Positions 3,772-20,000 of a DNA stretch of 20,000 nucleotides are shown here, piece after piece. Below the pieces are notes generated by a model. That model did not search any database. It worked only from the letters and a program-made list of their open reading frames with translations, and was not told where the DNA came from. Within the stretch, counting starts at the first letter, position 1; every line of letters begins with the position of its first letter. Source of the stretch: an uncultured virus (IMG/VR IMGVR_UViG_2700989659_000001). Taxonomy: Duplodnaviria; Heunggongvirae; Uroviricota; Caudoviricetes. The stretch lies in IMG/VR virus record IMGVR_UViG_2700989659_000001. One strand, given 5' to 3'. The position numbers and the translations under genes are program-made.

Positions 3772-4005
3772 ATGGCATCTATGGATAATATAGATCCAGA
3801 AGATTTATTAGTTTTGATTACTTCACTCTCTACTTCACTTTCAAAAAATAAAACTACTGCTGAAATTAATTTGCTCGGAAAATTTTTTTCATCAGTAGGA
3901 CGCTCAATGTTGGCTATTGCTTCTGAGGAAAATAATTTACATTCCACAGAAAATGTATCAACTTCATCCGAATCTATACCGGAAAATAATACTAGTTCTA
4001 GCTGA
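3772..4005 (+). CDS. Small clostridial protein, DUF6774-like (moron)
   Basis: IDPEDLLVLITSLSTSLSKNKTTAEINLLGKFFSSVGRSMLAIA resembles DUF6774 proteins; AGGATGA SD, own promoter and terminator, antisense to the early operon. Confidence 0.65.
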   Translation: MASMDNIDPEDLLVLITSLSTSLSKNKTTAEINLLGKFFSSVGRSMLAIASEENNLHSTENVSTSSESIPENNTSSS

Positions 4006-4012
4006 TTAGTAT

Positions 4013-4042
4013 TAAGCTCTTCTAAGTAAGAGCTTATTTTTT
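4013..4042 (+). terminator. Intrinsic terminator
   Basis: TAAGCTCTT-ctaagt-AAGAGCTTA followed by T6. Confidence 0.75.
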
Positions 4043-4249
4043 GTTATATATTTCTTTTAGCATTTGATTTAATTTTATAATTGTCTCTTTATTTTCAGCT
4101 AAAATACTTTCTTGCTTTTTCTGTTCTTCTTTACATACATTATCAAGATTAGCTCCTTTTGATTTAAAGAATTTAATATTATCCTCTAATCTAAGATTCT
4201 CGTTTTTTAGAATAAACTTAAAATGTTTAATTTCTTTTTCATTTAGCAT
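4034..4249 (-). CDS. Hypothetical coiled-coil phage protein (71 aa)
   Basis: ORF with AAAGGA SD, co-oriented with the early operon. Confidence 0.65.
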   Translation of the reverse strand: MLNEKEIKHFKFILKNENLRLEDNIKFFKSKGANLDNVCKEEQKKQESILAENKETIIKLNQMLKEIYNKK

Positions 4250-4339
4250 AAATATTTTCCTTTCTAAAATGAATATTTTTTTCTATACTCCATATATTAA
4301 TTTTGACTAATTATTTGGATATTATTTGACTTATGAAGG

Positions 4340-4669
4340 GTGGCCAATCCAGTGAAAAAATCTATTATTGTATTTTCTATTTTTTTCTTTCTATTATTCA
4401 CTATTAACATTGTAAATATATATGCCCAAACAAAAACATACTCACAAGGTTTTTATACGCTGAAAGACCTTGCTCTATACGAAAATAATGTTTACACAAT
4501 TCAAAATATCCAACCCTATGCAGATGGACTTTTAATTATTACTGACTCTAATCAAACTATACAACAAGTTATACGAATACCGCCCAACTCTATCAAATAT
4601 TCTTTAATACCTCTTAAAAGTGATTACAAATTAATAATATCTGGTAACATTCTTTTAACATTTATTTAA
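4340..4669 (+). CDS. Small exported protein (signal peptide), paralog 1
   Basis: KK-hydrophobic stretch-IYA|Q signal peptide; mature part aligns by eye with 4718..5056 (QTKTYSQGFYTLKDL / QTETFSEGIYTINDL). Confidence 0.8.
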   Translation: MANPVKKSIIVFSIFFFLLFTINIVNIYAQTKTYSQGFYTLKDLALYENNVYTIQNIQPYADGLLIITDSNQTIQQVIRIPPNSIKYSLIPLKSDYKLIISGNILLTFI

Positions 4670-4717
4670 TAAGTTCACATAATAAATTCGACTCTTTATT
4701 TGTGAGATAATTTTATT

Positions 4718-5056
4718 ATGAAAGGTTGTTTATTAATGAAAAAATTTGCTCTTATATTTTCTATTTTTTTACTCATATCTCTAAACTTTAATACAATATC
4801 AGCAGTAGCTCAAACCGAAACTTTTTCTGAAGGAATATATACCATAAATGATTTAAAATTGCTTGCAAATGTTCCGTATAAAGTTCGAAATGTTTCAGGT
4901 GGTAAAGCTTTTATTAGTATACTTAATGACGATTTAGTATTAGAACAATCTATACGTTTTGAAGAAAACTCATTACAATACGTCTTAAATCCTATGCAAT
5001 ATGACTATAAGATTGTAATACTAGGTACTGGTCAATTATCATTTTCTGGAATTTAA
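4718..5056 (+). CDS. Small exported protein (signal peptide), paralog 2; likely start 4736
   Basis: MKKFALIFSIFLLISLNFNTISAVA|Q signal peptide; shares YxLxP..xDYKxxIxG...LxF C-terminus with paralog 1. Confidence 0.8.
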   Translation: MKGCLLMKKFALIFSIFLLISLNFNTISAVAQTETFSEGIYTINDLKLLANVPYKVRNVSGGKAFISILNDDLVLEQSIRFEENSLQYVLNPMQYDYKIVILGTGQLSFSGI

Positions 5057-5195
5057 TATCATTGTAGATTATTAATATTTTCTATAATTTAGTATATGAT
5101 ACTAGTAGTATGAATTAAACTATTTGAATACTTATTTAAAAATTACACATAATATAATTAGTTATTGATTATATTATTATTTAAAAAATCCATTG

Positions 5196-5221
5196 TATGC
5201 CCTTTAATCGGGGCATATTTT
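5196..5221 (+). terminator. Intrinsic terminator after the exported-protein pair
   Basis: TATGCCC...GGGCATA stem followed by TTTT. Confidence 0.6.
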
Positions 5222-5263
5222 GCGTTTAATCTACAGAACTGCTTGGCACTTTAGTATGATATA

Positions 5264-5398
5264 TTAATATTCCCCTTCTGATTCTGCCATCCAACAGATT
5301 CCATAACGTCCATCATCACTTATTCTTGTACACTGTCCTTTGCAATTATCAATACAATTAGTGTCTTTGCAATCTGATCTTTCTTTTTCAATTTCCAT
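5264..5398 (-). CDS. Small 4-Cys phage protein (44 aa, possible Zn binding)
   Basis: ATG at 5398 after AAGGTGA: MEIEKERSDCKDTNCIDNCKGQCTRI...; the longer track start at 5464 falls inside a terminator. Confidence 0.6.
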   Translation of the reverse strand: MEIEKERSDCKDTNCIDNCKGQCTRISDDGRYGICWMAESEGEY

Positions 5399-5445
5399 GT
5401 TCTCACCTTCAATTAACAGTTTATCTAATTTTAGAATTGTGCAAT

Positions 5446-5480
5446 AAAAAAACCGCAAATTCATCTCTGAATAATGCGGT
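5446..5480 (-). terminator. Intrinsic terminator with GNRA loop downstream of the Cys-rich peptide gene
   Basis: RNA: ACCGCA-UU-AUUCA-GAGA-UGAAU-U-UGCGGU-UUUUUU. Confidence 0.85.
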
Positions 5481-5528
5481 ATTAAATATATTATTGATTT
5501 ATTTCCGGAATAATTATTCTATAATAAG

Positions 5529-5615
5529 TTAACAACACCAGTTGCTCCATCTACAGCAGCATTTCCTACAACGGCAACATCTACAGCAACATTTACAGCA
5601 TCTGCAACATGACAT
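5529..5615 (-). CDS. 28-aa Cys-rich peptide MSCCRCCKCCCRCCRCRKCCCRWSNWCC (absent from ORF track)
   Basis: Hand-translated; AAAGGGGAGA SD 5 nt before ATG; 15 Cys using mixed codons (9 TGT, 6 TGC); own promoter candidate and terminator. Confidence 0.8.
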   Translation of the reverse strand: MSCCRCCKCCCRCCRCRKCCCRWSNWCC

Positions 5616-5644
5616 ATTAATCTCCCCTTTTCTTTTGTATGTTA

Positions 5645-5672
5645 TAGTATATTCACAATACTTTATAAGCGT
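5645..5672 (-). promoter_or_regulatory. Putative sigmaK-type promoter for the Cys-rich peptide
   Basis: AC-N17-AATATACTA versus the sigmaK consensus AC-N17-CATAnnnTA (one mismatch); TATACT could alternatively be a sigmaA -10. Confidence 0.45.
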
Positions 5673-5781
5673 TACATTTCATAAGGTTTTATTTGAAAAC
5701 TTATGAAAGTGTTTTTTTATACCGCATTATTCAATTTTCAAAGATCAATTTAATTTATAAAATATTAGTATTACAAACTTA

Positions 5782-5952
5782 TTAAATTCTCTTAAAAACC
5801 ACTTCCTCAGAATTTTTTACAGAATTTAATAAGTCATATAACTTTATTGATTCACCTGTTTCTTCTTCTACAAGCCATATTGTGACTTCTTCTTCTAAAG
5901 CTTTCTTTAATACACTATCAATTATTTCTCCTATTCCATTGTAATTTGACAC
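5782..5952 (-). CDS. Small acidic hypothetical protein (56 aa; absent from ORF track)
   Basis: AAGGAGG-N7-GTG; MSNYNGIGEIIDSVLKKALEEEVTIWLVEEETGESIKLYDLLNSVKNSEEVVFKRI*. Confidence 0.7.
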   Translation of the reverse strand: MSNYNGIGEIIDSVLKKALEEEVTIWLVEEETGESIKLYDLLNSVKNSEEVVFKRI

Positions 5953-6016
5953 CACAAAACCTCCTTATTTTTGATACACAATATCTACAAAATACTTACC
6001 ATATTAGAATTCTGAC

Positions 6017-6205
6017 TTATATTTGGCTTTGCATAGTAATTTCTAACTCCTCTTTATTTGCTGCAATATCAATGATGTAATATTCTCCATAGTCTTTCAA
6101 ATCAGAATAATTAGGATAAAATTCTTCACCACTATCATGATGGTTTATCCTTAAAATTTGACATGTTTTTATCTGTGCTAAAATATCCTTTAATTTTAAA
6201 TCCAC
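6017..6205 (-). CDS. Hypothetical protein (62 aa)
   Basis: ORF with GAAGGT SD, co-oriented with the early operon. Confidence 0.6.
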   Translation of the reverse strand: MDLKLKDILAQIKTCQILRINHHDSGEEFYPNYSDLKDYGEYYIIDIAANKEELEITMQSQI

Positions 6206-6339
6206 TCTTTATACCTTCTTTCTTCTCAAAATTACTAGTATTACTAATGATTAATTACTCCTTCAATCTCTATTCGACTATTTATGTTGTAAATTGGTAA
6301 ATTAGGTTTTAAAATTTATTTATAAGAGGAGGTGTTAAA

Positions 6340-6600
6340 ATGAAAATAAGTGAGTGGAGTCTCTTTCTTACTGATGAACAAGTGAATACTTCTATTGAGA
6401 AATTCTTTGAACGACCAATAATTATATCTAATCCTATAAATTCACATGAAATGCTTGAATTATATACCAAAATCATTAATAACAACGATATAAATAACCG
6501 ATCAAAGCTTTTTTATTTAGATCAATTTGAAGATTTAATCATTGATAGTAGAATTACAACTACTGAAGATTTAATTAAATATACAGATTCACTATTCTAA
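6340..6600 (+). CDS. Hypothetical moron protein (86 aa)
   Basis: Strong AGGAGGTG SD, antisense to the early operon, own terminator. Confidence 0.75.
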   Translation: MKISEWSLFLTDEQVNTSIEKFFERPIIISNPINSHEMLELYTKIINNNDINNRSKLFYLDQFEDLIIDSRITTTEDLIKYTDSLF

Positions 6601-6614
6601 ATATATTACCTATC

Positions 6615-6645
6615 GGGCATTCTTTTTAAAATTAATGCCCTTTTT
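6615..6645 (+). terminator. Intrinsic terminator
   Basis: GGGCATT...AATGCCC followed by T5. Confidence 0.65.
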
Positions 6646-6739
6646 ATTAAACTTATATTAATTTAAACGCTTCCCCCTGTGGTTCGTAATGTATATATTT
6701 TCTTAATGATATTTTTATCATCTTTCACTCCTGTAATTA

Positions 6740-7714
6740 TTAGACTATAAGCTTATTAAGTTCCTTAAGCTCTGCTACTAAATTATTTATATTTTCTTTT
6801 TCTATGGTTATAGTTCCGGTTTTAAGCTTTAAATCTATATGGTTTTCTTTTATTTCATATTCCCCTATGGATCCTTTATAAAGTTTCACCAATTGTAATA
6901 TTGGCTTTTCTTCTATTACGCTGCTTTCTTCAATGCTTTCCTTAATTTGTTTATGCCCTTGATAATTCTTCGCATACTTTCTTATATCCCATACATCTAG
7001 ATAACTTTTTATGGTACTTAAGTTTATTCCGTATTTTTGTGCTATTTCATTTAGGGCCACCTTATTAGTGCCATATCTTTTTATGTGCGCAAGTAGCTCT
7101 TCCTTACTTAGTTTCTGAACTGGCATACTATCATCACCTTCCATTATATTTTTAATTTTATTCAGAGAATCTTTATATTTTCTTGATACACTTGTAGAAC
7201 TTATATTTAGAGTTTTTGAAACTTCGACTTGAGTTTTGTTCTGAAATGCTACTAACTCCACTATTGTTTTATTTATCGGTTCTAATTTGTCTATTGCTGC
7301 TTTAAGATTTTCGCATTCAATGTTTGTAAGAGCTATATCCTCATAATCATTATCATCATGTATTCCTTCAATAAATTCCGTTTCATTATCTTGATTATTA
7401 TTTATAACTTTATTTAGACTGGTAATTACAATGTGCTGGCTTTTATCAGATTTATAATTTCTATTTAATTCATTATTTATAATCATGGTGGCAAATGTTG
7501 TAAATAACACTTTCTTATTTATGTCATAGGCGTTGTAGGCTTTTATAAGTCCAATAAAACCTATCTGTTTTAAATCCTCAATCTCATATCTTATTGTCCA
7601 TCTTTTGCATAAGTTATAAACTAATCCCGAGAATTTCTCGCATACTTCTTTTGATGTTAAATTTTCAGTCCTATTTTTAAACTTTATAAGTCTCTTTACA
7701 ACATTAGATCCCAC
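6740..7714 (-). CDS. Sigma-70 family (sporulation/SigF-G-E-like) sigma factor fused to a C-terminal HTH-containing domain
   Basis: Region 2 EDLKQIGFIGLIKAYNAYD...FTTFA; region 4 LEPINKTIVEL...TQVEVSKTLNISSTSVSR; about 128 extra residues with NEIAQKYGINLSTIKSY. Confidence 0.85.
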   Translation of the reverse strand: MGSNVVKRLIKFKNRTENLTSKEVCEKFSGLVYNLCKRWTIRYEIEDLKQIGFIGLIKAYNAYDINKKVLFTTFATMIINNELNRNYKSDKSQHIVITSLNKVINNNQDNETEFIEGIHDDNDYEDIALTNIECENLKAAIDKLEPINKTIVELVAFQNKTQVEVSKTLNISSTSVSRKYKDSLNKIKNIMEGDDSMPVQKLSKEELLAHIKRYGTNKVALNEIAQKYGINLSTIKSYLDVWDIRKYAKNYQGHKQIKESIEESSVIEEKPILQLVKLYKGSIGEYEIKENHIDLKLKTGTITIEKENINNLVAELKELNKLIV

Positions 7715-7738
7715 ATGTAATCACCTCGATTCTAATAA

Positions 7739-8755
7739 TTATTTTCTTATTATTGGTAATACTAAATCTTTCTTATTTTCATAATCAGTTATGGTGATTG
7801 GGCTTGCTACATTACTCATGCACAATGTTGCATCTCCCTTATAGTTTCTTAAGGTCTCGAGCATGTATTTAGCATTTACTGCTATATCTAAATCACTTCC
7901 ATCTATACGGCACTTGAAATATTTCTTATATCTAATTCCCTGTACTCTTGTCACTAGATATGATCCATTGCTGTTAAAATTAAAATTTACTATTTGTGAA
8001 TACGAATTTAGTTTAGTTATTTGCTTACAGATATCCGCTAATTCTAAAGCATTCAATGTTACTCTTGTAGTATCTTGATTAGGAAACAAACTTTCATAAT
8101 TTATGAATTTCAATTTATCACCTTTTTTATCTCTTGGCCTTTTGCACATTATTGATACCCAACTGAAACAAATTTTTATATAATTATCATCATGGTATAT
8201 TGTGGCTATATCATTTTTGGAAAAATTTCTAAGTAACTTTACAATCTGATAAGGTATTAATATTGGTTCGCATGTTATATTCTCTTTATTACTTCTAACA
8301 CTCATTCTGTAGCCATCTAACGCAACTATATTATTCTTATCAATATATAAACACTGAAGTGCTGGCCTAGCTTCATCTTTAGCTATTGCATACTTACATT
8401 CAACCAACTTATTAAAATTAGGTATATTGATACATTCTTCATTGTGTATATCAATGGGAATTATACTCATAGTTCCAGGATCAAGTTTTATTTCCTGATC
8501 TTCTGTTTTGATAACATTGTTCTCTATAACTAAACTTGTTTTCTTTGGTAATAATGCAAATACTTCTTGTGGTATTGCTAACTCTCCATCTTCTTTTTCA
8601 CTATTGTAAGGCTCTATTATTTCAACCTGGTATTCATTTAATTCTGATTCTGCTAATAGCTTGATTGAACCACCCTTTACAATCACTTGATATTTACCAT
8701 CTTTAACAAGCTTAGATAATAGCAATAATGATTCACTATTTACTATTGCTTTCAT
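7739..8755 (-). CDS. Phage-encoded DNA polymerase III beta sliding clamp (DnaN-like)
   Basis: ARPALQCLYI...VALDGYRMS, FINYESLFP, IAVNAKYMLETLR and terminal LVLPI motifs; ATG 8755 after GGAGG/GGAG. Confidence 0.85.
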   Translation of the reverse strand: MKAIVNSESLLLLSKLVKDGKYQVIVKGGSIKLLAESELNEYQVEIIEPYNSEKEDGELAIPQEVFALLPKKTSLVIENNVIKTEDQEIKLDPGTMSIIPIDIHNEECINIPNFNKLVECKYAIAKDEARPALQCLYIDKNNIVALDGYRMSVRSNKENITCEPILIPYQIVKLLRNFSKNDIATIYHDDNYIKICFSWVSIMCKRPRDKKGDKLKFINYESLFPNQDTTRVTLNALELADICKQITKLNSYSQIVNFNFNSNGSYLVTRVQGIRYKKYFKCRIDGSDLDIAVNAKYMLETLRNYKGDATLCMSNVASPITITDYENKKDLVLPIIRK

Positions 8756-8777: not shown

Positions 8778-9179
8778 TTATATATCTAGCTCTAAAATTT
8801 CATCCTCTGTGACCTTCTTATCCGCCATACATTTGATAATCACATCTTCTCTAGCATATTTACCGTTATGCATTATCAAACTGCTCAATAGCCTATCTAG
8901 TGGCTTGTTCTTAATCTCTAGAATCTCTTTTATTTCTTCTCTTGTTAGATATTCTTTTAAAAAATGTGTTTCTAAGTAGTTCTGGAATTGAAGTTTGTAC
9001 TTAAGATACAATCTCCTGTTAAAATGAACTCCTGTTTTATGATCTCTATGGTGTGCATAACAAAGATATACAAAGTTATGCTTACAATCCTCTAAAGGTT
9101 TAAGCTGCTTTCGTGAAATTATATGGTGTAATTCTACTCCATAGCTTGTACCACATTCATTACAATACTTTTCACTCAT
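8778..9179 (-). CDS. HNH-like (beta-beta-alpha-Me) nuclease-family protein
   Basis: CNECG...ELHHII...NFVYLCYAHHR...GVH. Confidence 0.7.
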   Translation of the reverse strand: MSEKYCNECGTSYGVELHHIISRKQLKPLEDCKHNFVYLCYAHHRDHKTGVHFNRRLYLKYKLQFQNYLETHFLKEYLTREEIKEILEIKNKPLDRLLSSLIMHNGKYAREDVIIKCMADKKVTEDEILELDI

Positions 9180-9730
9180 ACTCTCACCTTCTCACAGTCC
9201 ATAAAGACTAATCGTATCTTTTTAGAGATTTCTCTTTTTATTCTTGATACTTGATTTTGAGATGTATTTATCATTTTAGCTATCTCTTTTTGAGTACAAT
9301 CATTTACGAAATACAAATTAAATACTTGTTTTTCTCTTGTATTAAGTTTTTCTATAGCTTCCCTTAGATTTGCCCCTGTAATGAAATCATCCTCAAAGCT
9401 GTTTATTCCAATCCGGCCCTCTAAATTTCCACAATCATATTCAGCTTCATAGGATAAGAACTTATATTTATGAGGAACACCTCTATTTTCATTAAACTGT
9501 TTATCACGAGATATAAAATTCAGTAATGCACCTCTTACTGATGGAATAGCATACGAAGAAAATTTAATGTCCTTAGTTTCATCAAAGCTCTTTCCTGCTT
9601 TTACTAATGCTAAATATGCAACTTGAACTACGTCTTGAAATTCATATTTCCAATTTATTTTAGGATATATTCTCTTAGCTTCTGTGTAAGCTAACCCCAT
9701 GTGCTCTGTTATATCAATCATCTTCATCAC
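9176..9730 (-). CDS. Sigma-70 family (SigF/SigG-like) sigma factor
   Basis: QDVVQVAYLALVKAGKSFD...KFSSYAIPSVRGAL; LNTREKQVFNLYFVNDCTQKEIAKMINTSQNQVSRI. Confidence 0.9.
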   Translation of the reverse strand: MMKMIDITEHMGLAYTEAKRIYPKINWKYEFQDVVQVAYLALVKAGKSFDETKDIKFSSYAIPSVRGALLNFISRDKQFNENRGVPHKYKFLSYEAEYDCGNLEGRIGINSFEDDFITGANLREAIEKLNTREKQVFNLYFVNDCTQKEIAKMINTSQNQVSRIKREISKKIRLVFMDCEKVRV

Positions 9731-17964: not shown

Positions 17965-19641
17965 ATGAAAGTAGCAATTTATTCCCGTAAGAGCAAGTTT
18001 ACAGAGGAAGGCGAATCTATAGAAAATCAAATTAATATGTGTATTAAATATGCTGAAAACATGTTAAATTTAACAGATTATGAAATATACGAAGATGAAG
18101 GCTTTTCTGGTGGTAATACTAACAGACCTCATTTTCAAAAACTTATGAAAGACATAAAAAATAAAAAGTTCACCCATCTTATCTGCTATAGATTAGATAG
18201 AATATCTAGAAATGTTGCTGACTTTACTAGCACACTGGAAATATTAAATAAACACGGAGTATCTTTTGTTAGTATTAAAGAACAATTCGATACTTCAACT
18301 GCGATGGGTAGAGCTATGATGAATGTAAGTGCAACATTTGCCCAGCTTGAAAGAGAAACTATTGCAGAACGTATAAAAGATAATCTTAGAGAATTAAGCA
18401 AAACTGGTAGATGGCTTGGTGGCCCTGCTCCACTAGGCTATAAATCAGTACAAGTCGAAAATAATGATCTAAAAGGTAAAAGTAGAAAAAAACATGTACT
18501 TCAAATTGAAGATAATGATATTAATATTGTTAAATTAGTTTTTGAGTTATTCAAAAAATATAAGAGCTTTCAAAAAGTAAGCTTAGCATTAGAGAATCAA
18601 GGAGTTTATAGCCGTAAAGGACGTGTTTTTTCAAGGGAACTTGTTAAGCAAATGATTAATAATCCTGTTTATGTTATAGCTGATAAAGTAATTCTCGATT
18701 TCTTTAGAAACTATGATTGTGAAATTTATCGAAAAGATAGCGTAAATGGATCTAATGCTATAATGCCTTATAATCGCAGAAAAGAGAATGGTAGTTTTGC
18801 TAAAATTGAAGCTTGGCTAATATCTGTAGGAGAACATCCTGGTATAATATCTAGCCGAGATTGGATAGACTGTCAAAATATTTGTAAAGAAATAAAATTA
18901 AAAGCATCTAACAGACAATGCACCAGTCAGGAGGCTTTATTAAGTGGATTGGTCATATGTGCTCACTGCGGTTCTAGTATGGCTCCAAGAAAACAATTAA
19001 ACAAATGTGTAAATTCTAATATAAATATTTATAGATATTATACGTGTAATTTGAAAAATAAAGCTGGTAACAGATGTAAAAATACATCTTTAAATGCATA
19101 TGAGGCTGAAGAGTATGTGGTTAATACAATCAAAAATATGACAAAAGATGATATTTTAGATATGTATCTAGATTCTAAACATAAAGCTGCCATCAAAGTT
19201 AACAACAACAATTTAATTAAAAATTTAGCTAAACAAATAGAAACTAACAAACAGATGATTAGCAATCTTTCTAAACGAGTCGGTTCTTCTAATGACGAAG
19301 ATCTTATATCTAGCTACGAAGATGAAATAAAGCAATTAAAACAGGAAAATAGAAAATTAGATGAACAAATGATAAAATTAGAATATGAAAATGATAATAT
19401 TCAAGATATAAAAAATGATATTTCTCAAGTGATTGAGTTATATAATAATTTCAAAAGATTTTACGATGTAACCGAGAAATTTGAAGATAAGAAACGACTT
19501 ATAGCTAGTGTAGTTAAATTTATTGTTTGGGATAGTAGCACAAATTCAATTAAAGTTGTTCCTATAGGCTCAAGCCTTACAAGAAGAGATTTTGGTAATG
19601 TTGCATTTAAGTCAACTGACCAGAAGAAATGGCCCATGTAG
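17965..19641 (+). CDS. Large serine recombinase (prophage integrase)
   Basis: AIYSRKS catalytic motif, YEDEGFSG, RLDRISR, FAQLERETIAER, LLSGLVICAHCG zinc ribbon and coiled coil. Confidence 0.97.
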   Translation: MKVAIYSRKSKFTEEGESIENQINMCIKYAENMLNLTDYEIYEDEGFSGGNTNRPHFQKLMKDIKNKKFTHLICYRLDRISRNVADFTSTLEILNKHGVSFVSIKEQFDTSTAMGRAMMNVSATFAQLERETIAERIKDNLRELSKTGRWLGGPAPLGYKSVQVENNDLKGKSRKKHVLQIEDNDINIVKLVFELFKKYKSFQKVSLALENQGVYSRKGRVFSRELVKQMINNPVYVIADKVILDFFRNYDCEIYRKDSVNGSNAIMPYNRRKENGSFAKIEAWLISVGEHPGIISSRDWIDCQNICKEIKLKASNRQCTSQEALLSGLVICAHCGSSMAPRKQLNKCVNSNINIYRYYTCNLKNKAGNRCKNTSLNAYEAEEYVVNTIKNMTKDDILDMYLDSKHKAAIKVNNNNLIKNLAKQIETNKQMISNLSKRVGSSNDEDLISSYEDEIKQLKQENRKLDEQMIKLEYENDNIQDIKNDISQVIELYNNFKRFYDVTEKFEDKKRLIASVVKFIVWDSSTNSIKVVPIGSSLTRRDFGNVAFKSTDQKKWPM

Positions 19642-19645
19642 AAAT
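19600..19645. other. Prophage-host att junction (crossover near 19621)
   Basis: CotJC-like frame EEMAHVE starts at 19623; upstream the frame reads xP rather than the conserved DIGT, so homology ends at about ...CTGAC|CAGAAGAAATG. Confidence 0.75.
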
Positions 19646-20000
19646 AATTGCTACAATGGTATATCAACTTATGGAAAACGCAACTATAGAAGAGATAAAA
19701 AAAGCAGGACTTGCTGGGCATTATGCTGATCATAGAAAAGCAGTATTTTATACAGATGCAACAGGAAATCCATGGACTGCAACTTATATACAAGCCAAAG
19801 GCGATGTAATTGCTGATTTACATGAAGATTTAGCTGCTGAACAAAAAGCACGAGCAACTTATGAAAATTTAATACACTTAACTGATGAACCACAAATTAA
19901 AGAAATATTAACATTCTTAAGAGAAAGAGAAGTCGTTCACTATCAAAGATTTGGTGAATGCTTAGAACACGTTCAAGATGCAATGTGCTTAAAAAAATAA
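19623..20000 (+). pseudogene. cotJC: 3' part of prophage-interrupted spore coat protein CotJC (manganese catalase family)
   Basis: EEMAHVEIIATMVYQL...GNPWTATYIQAKGDVIADLHEDLAAEQKARATY...FLREREVVHYQRF; the N-terminal third (GGxxGE, LLTDIGT) is missing. Confidence 0.9.

Follow-up and report, generated by a model that had tools for sequence, protein, structure and literature searches.

A phage-borne member of a family of Cys/Arg-rich Clostridium microproteins with a predicted sigma-K-type promoter

Cysteine-rich morphogenetic proteins are known from the spore coat and exosporium (CotY and CotZ of Bacillus subtilis, CdeC and CdeM of C. difficile, and CsxA of C. sporogenes), and phages can carry sporulation genes, as SPβ does with sspC. 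Protamines (small proteins that combine Arg and Cys) and the high-sulfur keratin-associated proteins (Cys with Gly or aromatic residues) act by charge and intermolecular disulfides, and metallothioneins are poor in aromatic residues and Arg. Here we analyze a 28-amino acid (AA) open reading frame (ORF), more than half of whose codons specify Cys, in a 20,000 nucleotide stretch of DNA (the whole of which is called "the window" below). The window corresponds, in reverse orientation, to the first 20 kb of the IMG/VR provirus record IMGVR_UViG_2700989659_000001 (49,706 bases; G+C 0.25–0.33), so the ORF is phage-borne, in agreement with the original prediction, which was made from the nucleotide sequence without database searches. 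Judged by its own sequence and that of its relatives, the ORF is a genuine coding gene under selection and not a chance frame, and its product is a captured copy of a chromosomal gene family, not an invention of the phage; by the same measure the family is one of unannotated Cys/Arg-rich microproteins (often also Gly/Phe/Asn-rich) of Clostridium sensu stricto.

These microproteins are like the Cys-rich coat and exosporium proteins in their probable late mother-cell expression, in a high Cys content that would serve disulfide cross-linking of the outer layers, and in being encoded by scattered monocistronic genes. On the other hand, CotY/CotZ, CdeC/CdeM and CsxA are folded proteins of about 15–45 kDa with a far lower Cys content, whereas the family members are 22–67 AAs long with, for the most part, 27–64% Cys and 22% Arg overall, and the two groups have no sequence similarity (no Pfam or NCBIfam match). 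They share with the protamines and keratin-associated proteins a similar composition; there is no homology, the setting is bacterial and the cellular context is different, so the likeness is an analogy of mechanism only. The yjcZ gene of B. subtilis, a tiny member of the sigma-K regulon, was missed by early annotation (PMC517825, in excerpt), and the family is like the YjcZ-type proteins, as that excerpt presents them, in small size, in probable membership of a late mother-cell regulon and in having escaped annotation; it is unlike them in that it has no NCBIfam match at E ≤ 0.1 and that the window peptide has no Gly-rich or hydrophobic part. Two ORFs do recall YjcZ-type proteins in their Gly/Phe-rich part and hydrophobic tail, family member L506 and an 80-AA ORF on a Clostridium weizhouense contig (L213, 3014–3256, plus strand; MSKKCCDCCKCCCNPCCDPCC...GYGGGAGFGGGF...LLLFGG...). 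The latter has a head of CC-(D/N)P repeats and a Gly/Phe-rich hydrophobic tail, is built like L506, and has no match in Pfam or NCBIfam.

The window ORF extends from an ATG to a TAA codon on the minus strand (Table 1) and reads MSCCRCCKCCCRCCRCRKCCCRWSNWCC. It contains 15 Cys (53.6%), five Arg (18%) and two Lys among its 28 residues, which gives a (C+R+K)/length ratio of 0.79; there are two Trp, no Asp or Glu, and the net charge is about +7. No hydrophobic segment is present in the peptide, and with it the N-terminal transmembrane helix of the FeoB-associated/virus attachment p12 family is missing. The pentapeptide KCCCR occurs twice (residues 8–12 and 18–22), within a 30-nt direct repeat (5548–5577 and 5578–5607) whose copies are 80% identical, and the Cys codons are mixed, nine TGT and six TGC. 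The hyper-Cys composition (15 Cys and seven Arg/Lys), the mixed codons and the internal duplication had all been noted in the original prediction, and re-reading of the DNA bears them out. By comparison, Cys makes up 106 of the 11,641 codons (0.9%) in the long ORFs of the 49.7-kb record, 79 of them TGT and 27 TGC. A filter of at least four Cys and at least 15% Cys passes four of the 897 ORFs of 12 AAs or more in the record, and the other three have only 4–5 Cys in 22–25 AAs, compared with 15 in 28 here. No longer ORF overlaps positions 5615..5529 on either strand.

The Shine-Dalgarno (SD) sequence that had been claimed for the ORF is indeed present; it reads AAAGGGGAGA and lies 5 nt (TTAAT) ahead of the ATG, and its core GGGGAG (5627–5622) ends 6 nt ahead of it. 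Loss of the frame, SD and Cys codons among homologues had been named in advance as evidence against a gene; the homologues keep all three, and on this basis we regard the ORF as a real coding gene. The most informative pair, L500 and L501 from two genomes, differs at 9 of 108 nt, and eight of these differences are synonymous and one is a replacement; if about one quarter of random changes are synonymous, a binomial estimate gives a probability near 1e-4 for at least eight of nine. By this sequence measure the pair shows purifying selection on the peptide sequence. Insertions or deletions between close family pairs are 12, 3 and 3 nt long and thus in frame. Between the ORF of the window and that of its nearest relative, in chromosomal locus L345, there is one in-frame 12-nt indel; three substitutions are synonymous and four change the residue, and in two of these four one altered base (TGY to CGY) exchanges Cys and Arg. 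The +1 frame, too, lacks stops in every member, a consequence of the TGY/MGN codon composition.

The relatives were found through DNA and not through protein. A search with window positions 4000–7800 against 381 scored Clostridiaceae genomes gave two kinds of short match around the ORF; those to the SD and to the ORF's 5′ end pointed to ORFs MLCCQCCRCCRCCRCRRCRIRCRRRRRFSSL and MSFCRCNRCEKEEKEERCNRC..., which have a nearly identical leader. A strict leader pattern, ATACAAAAGArrAG-N-GATTAATATG, matches 4 of 401 Clostridiaceae genomes as well as the window. A relaxed SD pattern matches 24 viral and 121 metagenome loci, and exactly two of these 145 encode Cys-rich ORFs, namely the two that have the whole promoter block; the ORFs at the other 143, which serve as a control, have at most 10% Cys, and such peptides are absent from all 24 matches in viral contigs. 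One of the two, L345, reads MSCCRCRKRCCRCRCRCCRCWKCCCRWNNWCC. Finally, a 121-nt promoter-to-start query matches 24 of 113 scored genomes in one sample of the genus Clostridium. Together the family comprises 23 distinct related peptides of 22–67 AAs and, in addition, a copy that starts with GTG; the sources are Clostridium genomes and two metagenome contigs.

All recovered members are preceded by one common promoter/ribosome-site block, and the start codon stands at a fixed place relative to its conserved 5′ part; the window copy has that block, the promoter spacing and a Cys/Arg-dominated ORF without acidic residues. The pooled composition of the family is 28.6% Cys, 22.3% Arg, 12.3% Phe, 9.4% Gly, 7.5% Asn and 1.4% Asp plus Glu, so about one residue in two is Cys or Arg. 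Most members have 27–64% Cys with CC and CxC clusters, and many carry a Gly/Phe/Asn-rich N- or C-terminal extension around an (N)RCC(R)CC-type core; length, repeat number and Cys spacing vary freely. No signal peptide or membrane segment is present in the family peptides. The genes are monocistronic and scattered, the genes downstream of the chromosomal homologues are unrelated and on either strand, and the ORFs next to some members are YmaF, DUF2935 (Pfam) or rubrerythrin-like. A neighbouring ORF at L460 looks CotF-like by eye.

Protein databases contain nearly nothing of this family. Neither the window peptide nor four homologues have a match in Pfam, NCBIfam or PHROGs. A word-indexed protein search gave no candidate with the 49-AA stop-to-stop reading of the window ORF, and 25 candidates, none at E ≤ 1, with a 53-AA homologue. 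Exact look-up of 15 members in a collection of 15 billion proteins found none of them, a negative that is limited by the possibility that callers start at an in-frame GTG three codons upstream, and a 22-member profile had no match at E ≤ 0.001 among 1.84 billion representatives, with the low power expected of a low-complexity profile of 38 positions. It appears from these two results that gene callers miss the family. In the ESM Atlas L506 is present, its neighbour clusters being Bacillota without names, and nothing usable was found for L514. Our literature searches (which did not extend to bioRxiv supplements or Tables S6–S8 of PMC3789822) found no paper describing such peptides.

The original prediction also assigned the gene a sigma-K-like promoter, and we locate such a motif, AC-N17-AATATACT, whose −10 end is 30 nt from the ATG. 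Its architecture is kept in 24 of the 25 family copies with an ORF, where AC-N16/17-nATAnnnT ends 26–31 nt before the start; an SD is present in 23 of these copies and a hairpin plus T-run terminator in 19. According to the relevant portion of Saujet et al. (PMC3789822), a −35 element AC distinguishes sigma-K from sigma-E promoters (ATA), and the combination of CATATAAT with AC denotes a sigma-K promoter. The family pattern AAC(A)-17-(C/A)ATATA(A/T/C)T fits the pattern given in that portion (−35 AC, −10 CATA---TA or CATATAAT-like, spacer of 16–17 nt), and this promoter may point to late mother-cell transcription by a sigma-K-type factor. At several other loci (L503, L505, L513/L516 and L515) the promoter block, about 45 nt long, precedes a non-Cys-rich ORF or no obvious ORF, so the promoter may drive further unannotated genes; no coat gene was recognized behind these promoter-only copies, where the only ORF noted was an uninformative one of 69 AAs (L515).

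A 150-AA kinase-like gene lies directly upstream of the microprotein gene in eight loci, and such kinase-like genes are themselves preceded, about 75–90 nt before their start, by a motif of the same sigma-K-like type, AC-N16/17-[AC]ATAnnnTA, in 28 of 33 loci. Their family, whose clusters number at least 273 and are named hypothetical or protein-kinase-domain protein, is present in 57 of the 113 genomes sampled. These minimal kinase-like Clostridium proteins of about 150 AAs (L457–L486, L345 and L390) have a GSGSSRDVF...VVKIA N-lobe and an IIDYGFT motif, and they match no Pfam family.

The dedicated terminator of the original prediction is likewise in place: the ORF is followed by the hairpin ACCGCAttATTCA-GAGA-TGAATtTGCGGT and seven Ts, and this hairpin forms in the predicted fold of the short RNA initiated at the cassette's own promoter. 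The terminators of other members belong to the same hairpin family, with the compensatory changes CCGC/GCGG, CCAT/ATGG and CCGT/ACGG.

That the whole unit came from a chromosome is apparent from its alignment with L345, in which 82.8% of 262 aligned positions are identical, from the −35 region to just past the terminator; the two are identical over the 25 nt from ATACAAAAG to the ATG. The L345 unit lies downstream of a kinase-like gene in an ordinary chromosomal context on a metagenome contig. In addition, a related phage contig has 29 other letters in place of a 311-nt cassette that contains the gene (Table 1), so the cassette is variable among close relatives, as expected of a captured moron. 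In sequencing run X1 (depth 114.7), the source of that contig, the matches to the phage flanks are near-perfect, with four differences in 4867–5417; the depth of the bin 5524–5650 in four DNA runs is 0, 0.67, 0 and 0, from which absence cannot be concluded. Thus the gene has both features by which phage morons are recognized, an autonomous promoter-gene-terminator unit and presence or absence between relatives, and the alignments show the phage copy to be a complete promoter-to-terminator unit captured as a moron from a Clostridium chromosome. It resembles other morons in being a self-contained unit between phage genes that varies among close relatives; it is unlike the known ones in that its cargo is a new microprotein and that the capture is visible as 83% identity to a chromosomal unit.

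Table 1. Features of the microprotein cassette (positions are those of the window)
Feature	Coordinates	Strand	Remarks
Microprotein CDS	5529..5615	-	TAA at 5529-5531; start, frame and composition kept in family
Ribosome-binding site AAAGGGGAGA	5621..5630	-	Block ATACAAAAGArrAG..GATTAATATG conserved in family
Sigma-K-type promoter (predicted)	5646..5672	-	-35 AC at 5672-5671; 17-nt spacer; -10 AATATACT at 5653-5646
Intrinsic terminator	5446..5480	-	Stem of 6 bp + 5 bp, 2x1 internal loop, GAGA loop, T7
Block homologous to L345	5431..5668	-	Promoter, SD, ORF, 3′ untranslated region and terminator; one in-frame 12-nt indel
311-nt cassette	5437..5747		Missing from related phage contig, where 29 other letters join 5436 to 5748
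Upstream inverted-repeat arm	5715..5733		18/19 match; inside copy of widespread element GTTCTTTGAAAATTGAATAATGCGGTAT ("upA")
Downstream inverted-repeat arm	5468..5486		5′ half of terminator stem

The ends of the cassette coincide with two elements that recur in many Clostridiaceae genomes, GTTCTTTGAAAATTGAATAATGCGGTAT upstream and the terminator hairpin family downstream. The downstream element has the form ATACCGCATTATTCA...TGAATnnGCGGTAT, a T-run and a CACAATTC tail, with compensatory changes between copies. Each element contains one arm of a long-range inverted repeat, and for RNA begun upstream of 5733 the fold of lowest energy has the two arms paired and the terminator disrupted; in this folding model, read-through phage transcripts could pass the terminator while the moron's own transcript ends there. 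Alternatively, repeats at the cassette ends may mark points of recombinational exchange. These elements (5710–5751 and 5411–5504; loci L284–L307) border numerous unrelated small genes and in places form arrays; they have in common a 15-nt core, inverted, and the tail of the hairpin family reads TTTTTayryCACAATTC. They could be mobile terminators or REP-like repeats, sites for a regulator, or handles for recombination.

The reading that we favor, and to which we give about an even chance of being correct, is that the ORF is a translated, phage-captured member of the family with late expression of the sigma-K type, and that its product is a cationic, disulfide cross-linking peptide of the spore surface. 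Like each family member, the gene is a stand-alone unit with a promoter (−35 AC, −10 (C/A)ATATAnT), a leader estimated at about 22–24 nt with a strong SD, a short ORF and a hairpin terminator. A temperate phage acquired it whole, promoter to terminator, from a host chromosome, and a mother-cell sporulation sigma factor of the sigma-K type would transcribe it late in the sporulation of a lysogen. From the mother-cell cytoplasm the peptide would bind the nascent spore coat or exosporium by its Arg charge (such binding is suggested by the composition and by the lack of a signal peptide or membrane segment), and multiple disulfides would then lock it in as a small cross-linking matrix peptide, so that the phage copy would add to or alter the host's own peptide set. 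Besides the promoter of the family itself, the regulatory part of this reading draws on the like motif of the adjoining kinase-like genes, on some of the neighbours (YmaF, DUF2935 and the CotF-like ORF of L460) and on the position of the phage in a CotJC-type gene (below).

Several observations weigh against this picture. A search for sequencing runs that contain the stretch listed none of RNA. The role of a cross-linker is an analogy drawn from composition, no spore protein of known location is homologous to the family, and most genomic neighbours of its members are unrelated to sporulation. The promoter assignment is likewise made from nucleotide sequence alone, and the sigma-K-like motif occurs in the window at chance frequency (two matches, 1.19 expected). 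The first base of the −10 element is A, not the consensus C, in all copies except one; moreover, the −10 region contains TATAAT-like hexamers and AGAACA matches the sigma-A −35 element at three of six positions, so vegetative transcription by sigma-A is possible. The kinase-like gene adjoins the microprotein gene at just eight of the loci where the latter is found, and a Cys-rich ORF lies downstream at only 4 of 30 kinase loci. A bolder form of the proposal, which we consider possible and decidedly tentative, is that Clostridium spores carry hyper-Cys/Arg microproteins similar to the keratin-associated proteins, with several paralogues per genome, missed by gene callers and driven by sigma-K-type promoters, that glue the outer layers together by charge and disulfides, and that temperate phages lodged in sporulation genes trade alleles of them and so remodel the spore surface of the lysogen.

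Among the alternatives, the peptide might be a thiol-rich, metallothionein-like sink for metals or oxidants in the mother cell or spore, which we think rather unlikely. The Cys content of most members, with its CC and CxC clusters, would suit this role, as would the rubrerythrin/ferritin-like or FeoB genes that adjoin L492, L500 and L504 and the position of the prophage in a Mn-catalase gene (below). Metallothioneins have few Arg and few aromatic residues, whereas the family has 22% Arg and 12% Phe and the window peptide 18% Arg and two Trp, and no Pfam match was found; nor was any metal-responsive regulator or conserved metal gene neighbourhood seen, and free variation in length and Cys spacing is more in keeping with a matrix than with a defined metal cluster. 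Metallothioneins, FeoB-associated proteins and SCIFF precursors are alike to the family only as short proteins with Cys clusters; FeoB-associated Cys-rich proteins have a transmembrane helix, as has a viral ORF at locus L064 (below), and the window peptide does not.

A second alternative, unlikely in our judgment, is a polycationic effector, either a defensin-like antimicrobial freed at mother-cell lysis or a protamine-like condenser of nucleic acids. A peptide with Arg and Cys, about +7 in 28 AAs and without acidic residues is reminiscent of protamines and of Cys/Arg-rich β-hairpin antimicrobials, and one without a signal peptide would need lysis for its release, which is how sporulation ends. 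There is no conserved immunity or export gene nearby, a mother-cell promoter would put the product in the wrong compartment for spore DNA, and the Gly/Phe/Asn-rich extensions of many members resemble structural low-complexity protein instead.

The data contradict the three remaining explanations. A ribosomally synthesized and post-translationally modified peptide (RiPP) precursor, modified at its cysteines (ranthipeptide/SCIFF or lanthipeptide), is very unlikely; a short Cys-rich peptide with a small kinase-like gene upstream in eight loci could suggest one, but most members have no kinase neighbour, there is no division into leader and core and no NCBIfam or Pfam match, and no gene of radical-SAM, cyclodehydratase, LanM/LanKC or protease/transporter type is present in the window, among 36 neighbour ORFs at 14 chromosomal loci or in a separate scan of neighbours. 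The radical-SAM maturase that SCIFF needs is thus missing near the window ORF and at those loci, and the doubt that the original prediction had cast on a RiPP is supported. A regulatory leader peptide, in which stalling at the 15 Cys codons would sense Cys-tRNA and control the terminator ahead of a 44-AA gene, is highly improbable; the terminator does lie between the 28-AA ORF and the next one (5398–5264) and the long-range inverted repeat can sequester its 5′ half, but we rejected this attenuator because the stop codon is 43 nt before the repeat arm, so that a terminating ribosome stays short of it, the upstream arm is outside the cassette's own transcript, the chromosomal homologues precede unrelated genes on either strand, and the peptide sequence itself is under purifying selection. 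A chance open frame in low-complexity repeat DNA is scarcely credible: in other contigs Ala/Ser/Thr/Gln repeats read out of frame commonly give poly-Cys frames, the +1 frame is likewise free of stops (a by-product of composition) and gene callers do not predict the family ORFs, but the ATG, SD and promoter are conserved, synonymous changes exceed replacements 8:1 and indels are in frame, 23 distinct peptides of one odd composition come from different genomes, and neither strand has a longer overlapping ORF.

Chance poly-Cys frames are illustrated by searches with poly-Cys DNA patterns, which gave at least 120 loci in viral contigs (23 with a tighter pattern) and 114 in 185,579 species genomes. 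Nearly all of these, viral and genomic, are off-frame Ala/Ser/Thr/Gln repeats, and no homologue was found among the matches listed; they have no start or SD and serve as a negative control. The only plausible small gene among the approximately 140 viral poly-Cys matches listed is the L064 ORF mentioned above (minus strand, start at 1450 of the reversed locus), which encodes 38 AAs (MSWLMILLILIVLSGGSCCDCCKCCCCKRNENEDDYYY) with an SD and consists of a membrane helix and a Cys cluster.

The prophage itself appears to interrupt a gene for a CotJC-type spore-coat catalase. Its large serine recombinase (Resolvase, Recombinase and Zn_ribbon_recom domains; 17965–19641) abuts a CotJC-type Mn-catalase fragment. 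Within 17965–20000, which takes in both, the recombinase gene ends inside an ORF whose Mn_catalase match begins only at position 67 of the 284-position profile, which is the ground for this proposal; the 49.7-kb record lacks the other half of the catalase gene. Prophages that interrupt sporulation genes have been described, SPβ in spsM and skin in sigK (PMC4191935, in part), and the present one is like them, as far as that part goes, in its large serine recombinase and its position in a gene of mother-cell type.

The window contains an XRE/ImmA-type lysogeny module, Erf- and DnaD-like replication genes, a β clamp, an NA37 nucleoid protein and RecU; judged by ORF sizes and translations, the head and tail genes probably lie further on in the record. 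There are two sigma-70-family genes (6740–7714 and 9176–9730, both on the minus strand), whose best NCBIfam matches, far below cut-off, are to sporulation SigF/SigG and then SigK/SigE; the 324-AA phage sigma protein has a C-terminal extension of about 130 AAs. The microprotein gene sits among small ORFs that separate the late sigma gene from the NA37 gene. The window sigma factor and proteins of 62 and 112 AAs have no usable relatives in viral contigs, and the only relative of a 223-AA window protein in phage records is in Clostridium phage HM T and is not syntenic. Against phage records, neither blastn of the locus nor tblastn of the 62-AA protein gave a match, and Rfam found over 4000–7800 only a sub-threshold small RNA match away from the ORF.

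Four other features of the neighbourhood deserve mention. Directly after the cassette terminator is a 44-AA ORF (5264–5398, minus strand; MEIEKERSDCKDTNCIDNCKGQCTRISDDGRYGICWMAESEGEY) with five Cys and a good SD, GAAGGTGAGA; it has no family match, and its DNA is near-identical in related phage contigs in two runs. On the opposite strand in the early region are two paralogous ORFs of about 110 AAs (4340–4669 and 4718–5056, plus strand) with N-terminal hydrophobic segments like signal peptides; these have no family match either, and DNA related at 70–81% identity is present in several Clostridium genomes of about 6 Mb. An inverted repeat of 22 nt (5777–5834; 91% complementary, 14-nt loop) overlaps the 3′ end of a 57-AA ORF (5782–5955) upstream of the cassette. 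A direct repeat with an SD-like copy at 5256–5277 was dismissed, as it is at the noise level of other AT-rich repeats.

We provisionally rate these microproteins as a new family that would belong among the Cys-rich spore-surface proteins and the phage morons. Even without the functional reading, conserved microproteins that are missing from a collection of 15 billion proteins are a concrete annotation gap. Small size and an unusual composition put the peptides beyond gene callers; since members are missing from protein collections, proteome studies searched against such sets would be expected to have missed them, and their Arg content would probably leave tryptic fragments too small for standard proteomics. 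The conserved promoter block offers a handle for finding more unannotated late-sporulation genes. If the proposed function is correct, the family would be a missing class of components in the biology of the Clostridium spore coat and exosporium, and the phage gene would be a clean example of the capture of a complete host sporulation-stage transcription unit; alleles traded by phages could then change spore resistance, adhesion, or phage adsorption to germinating spores.

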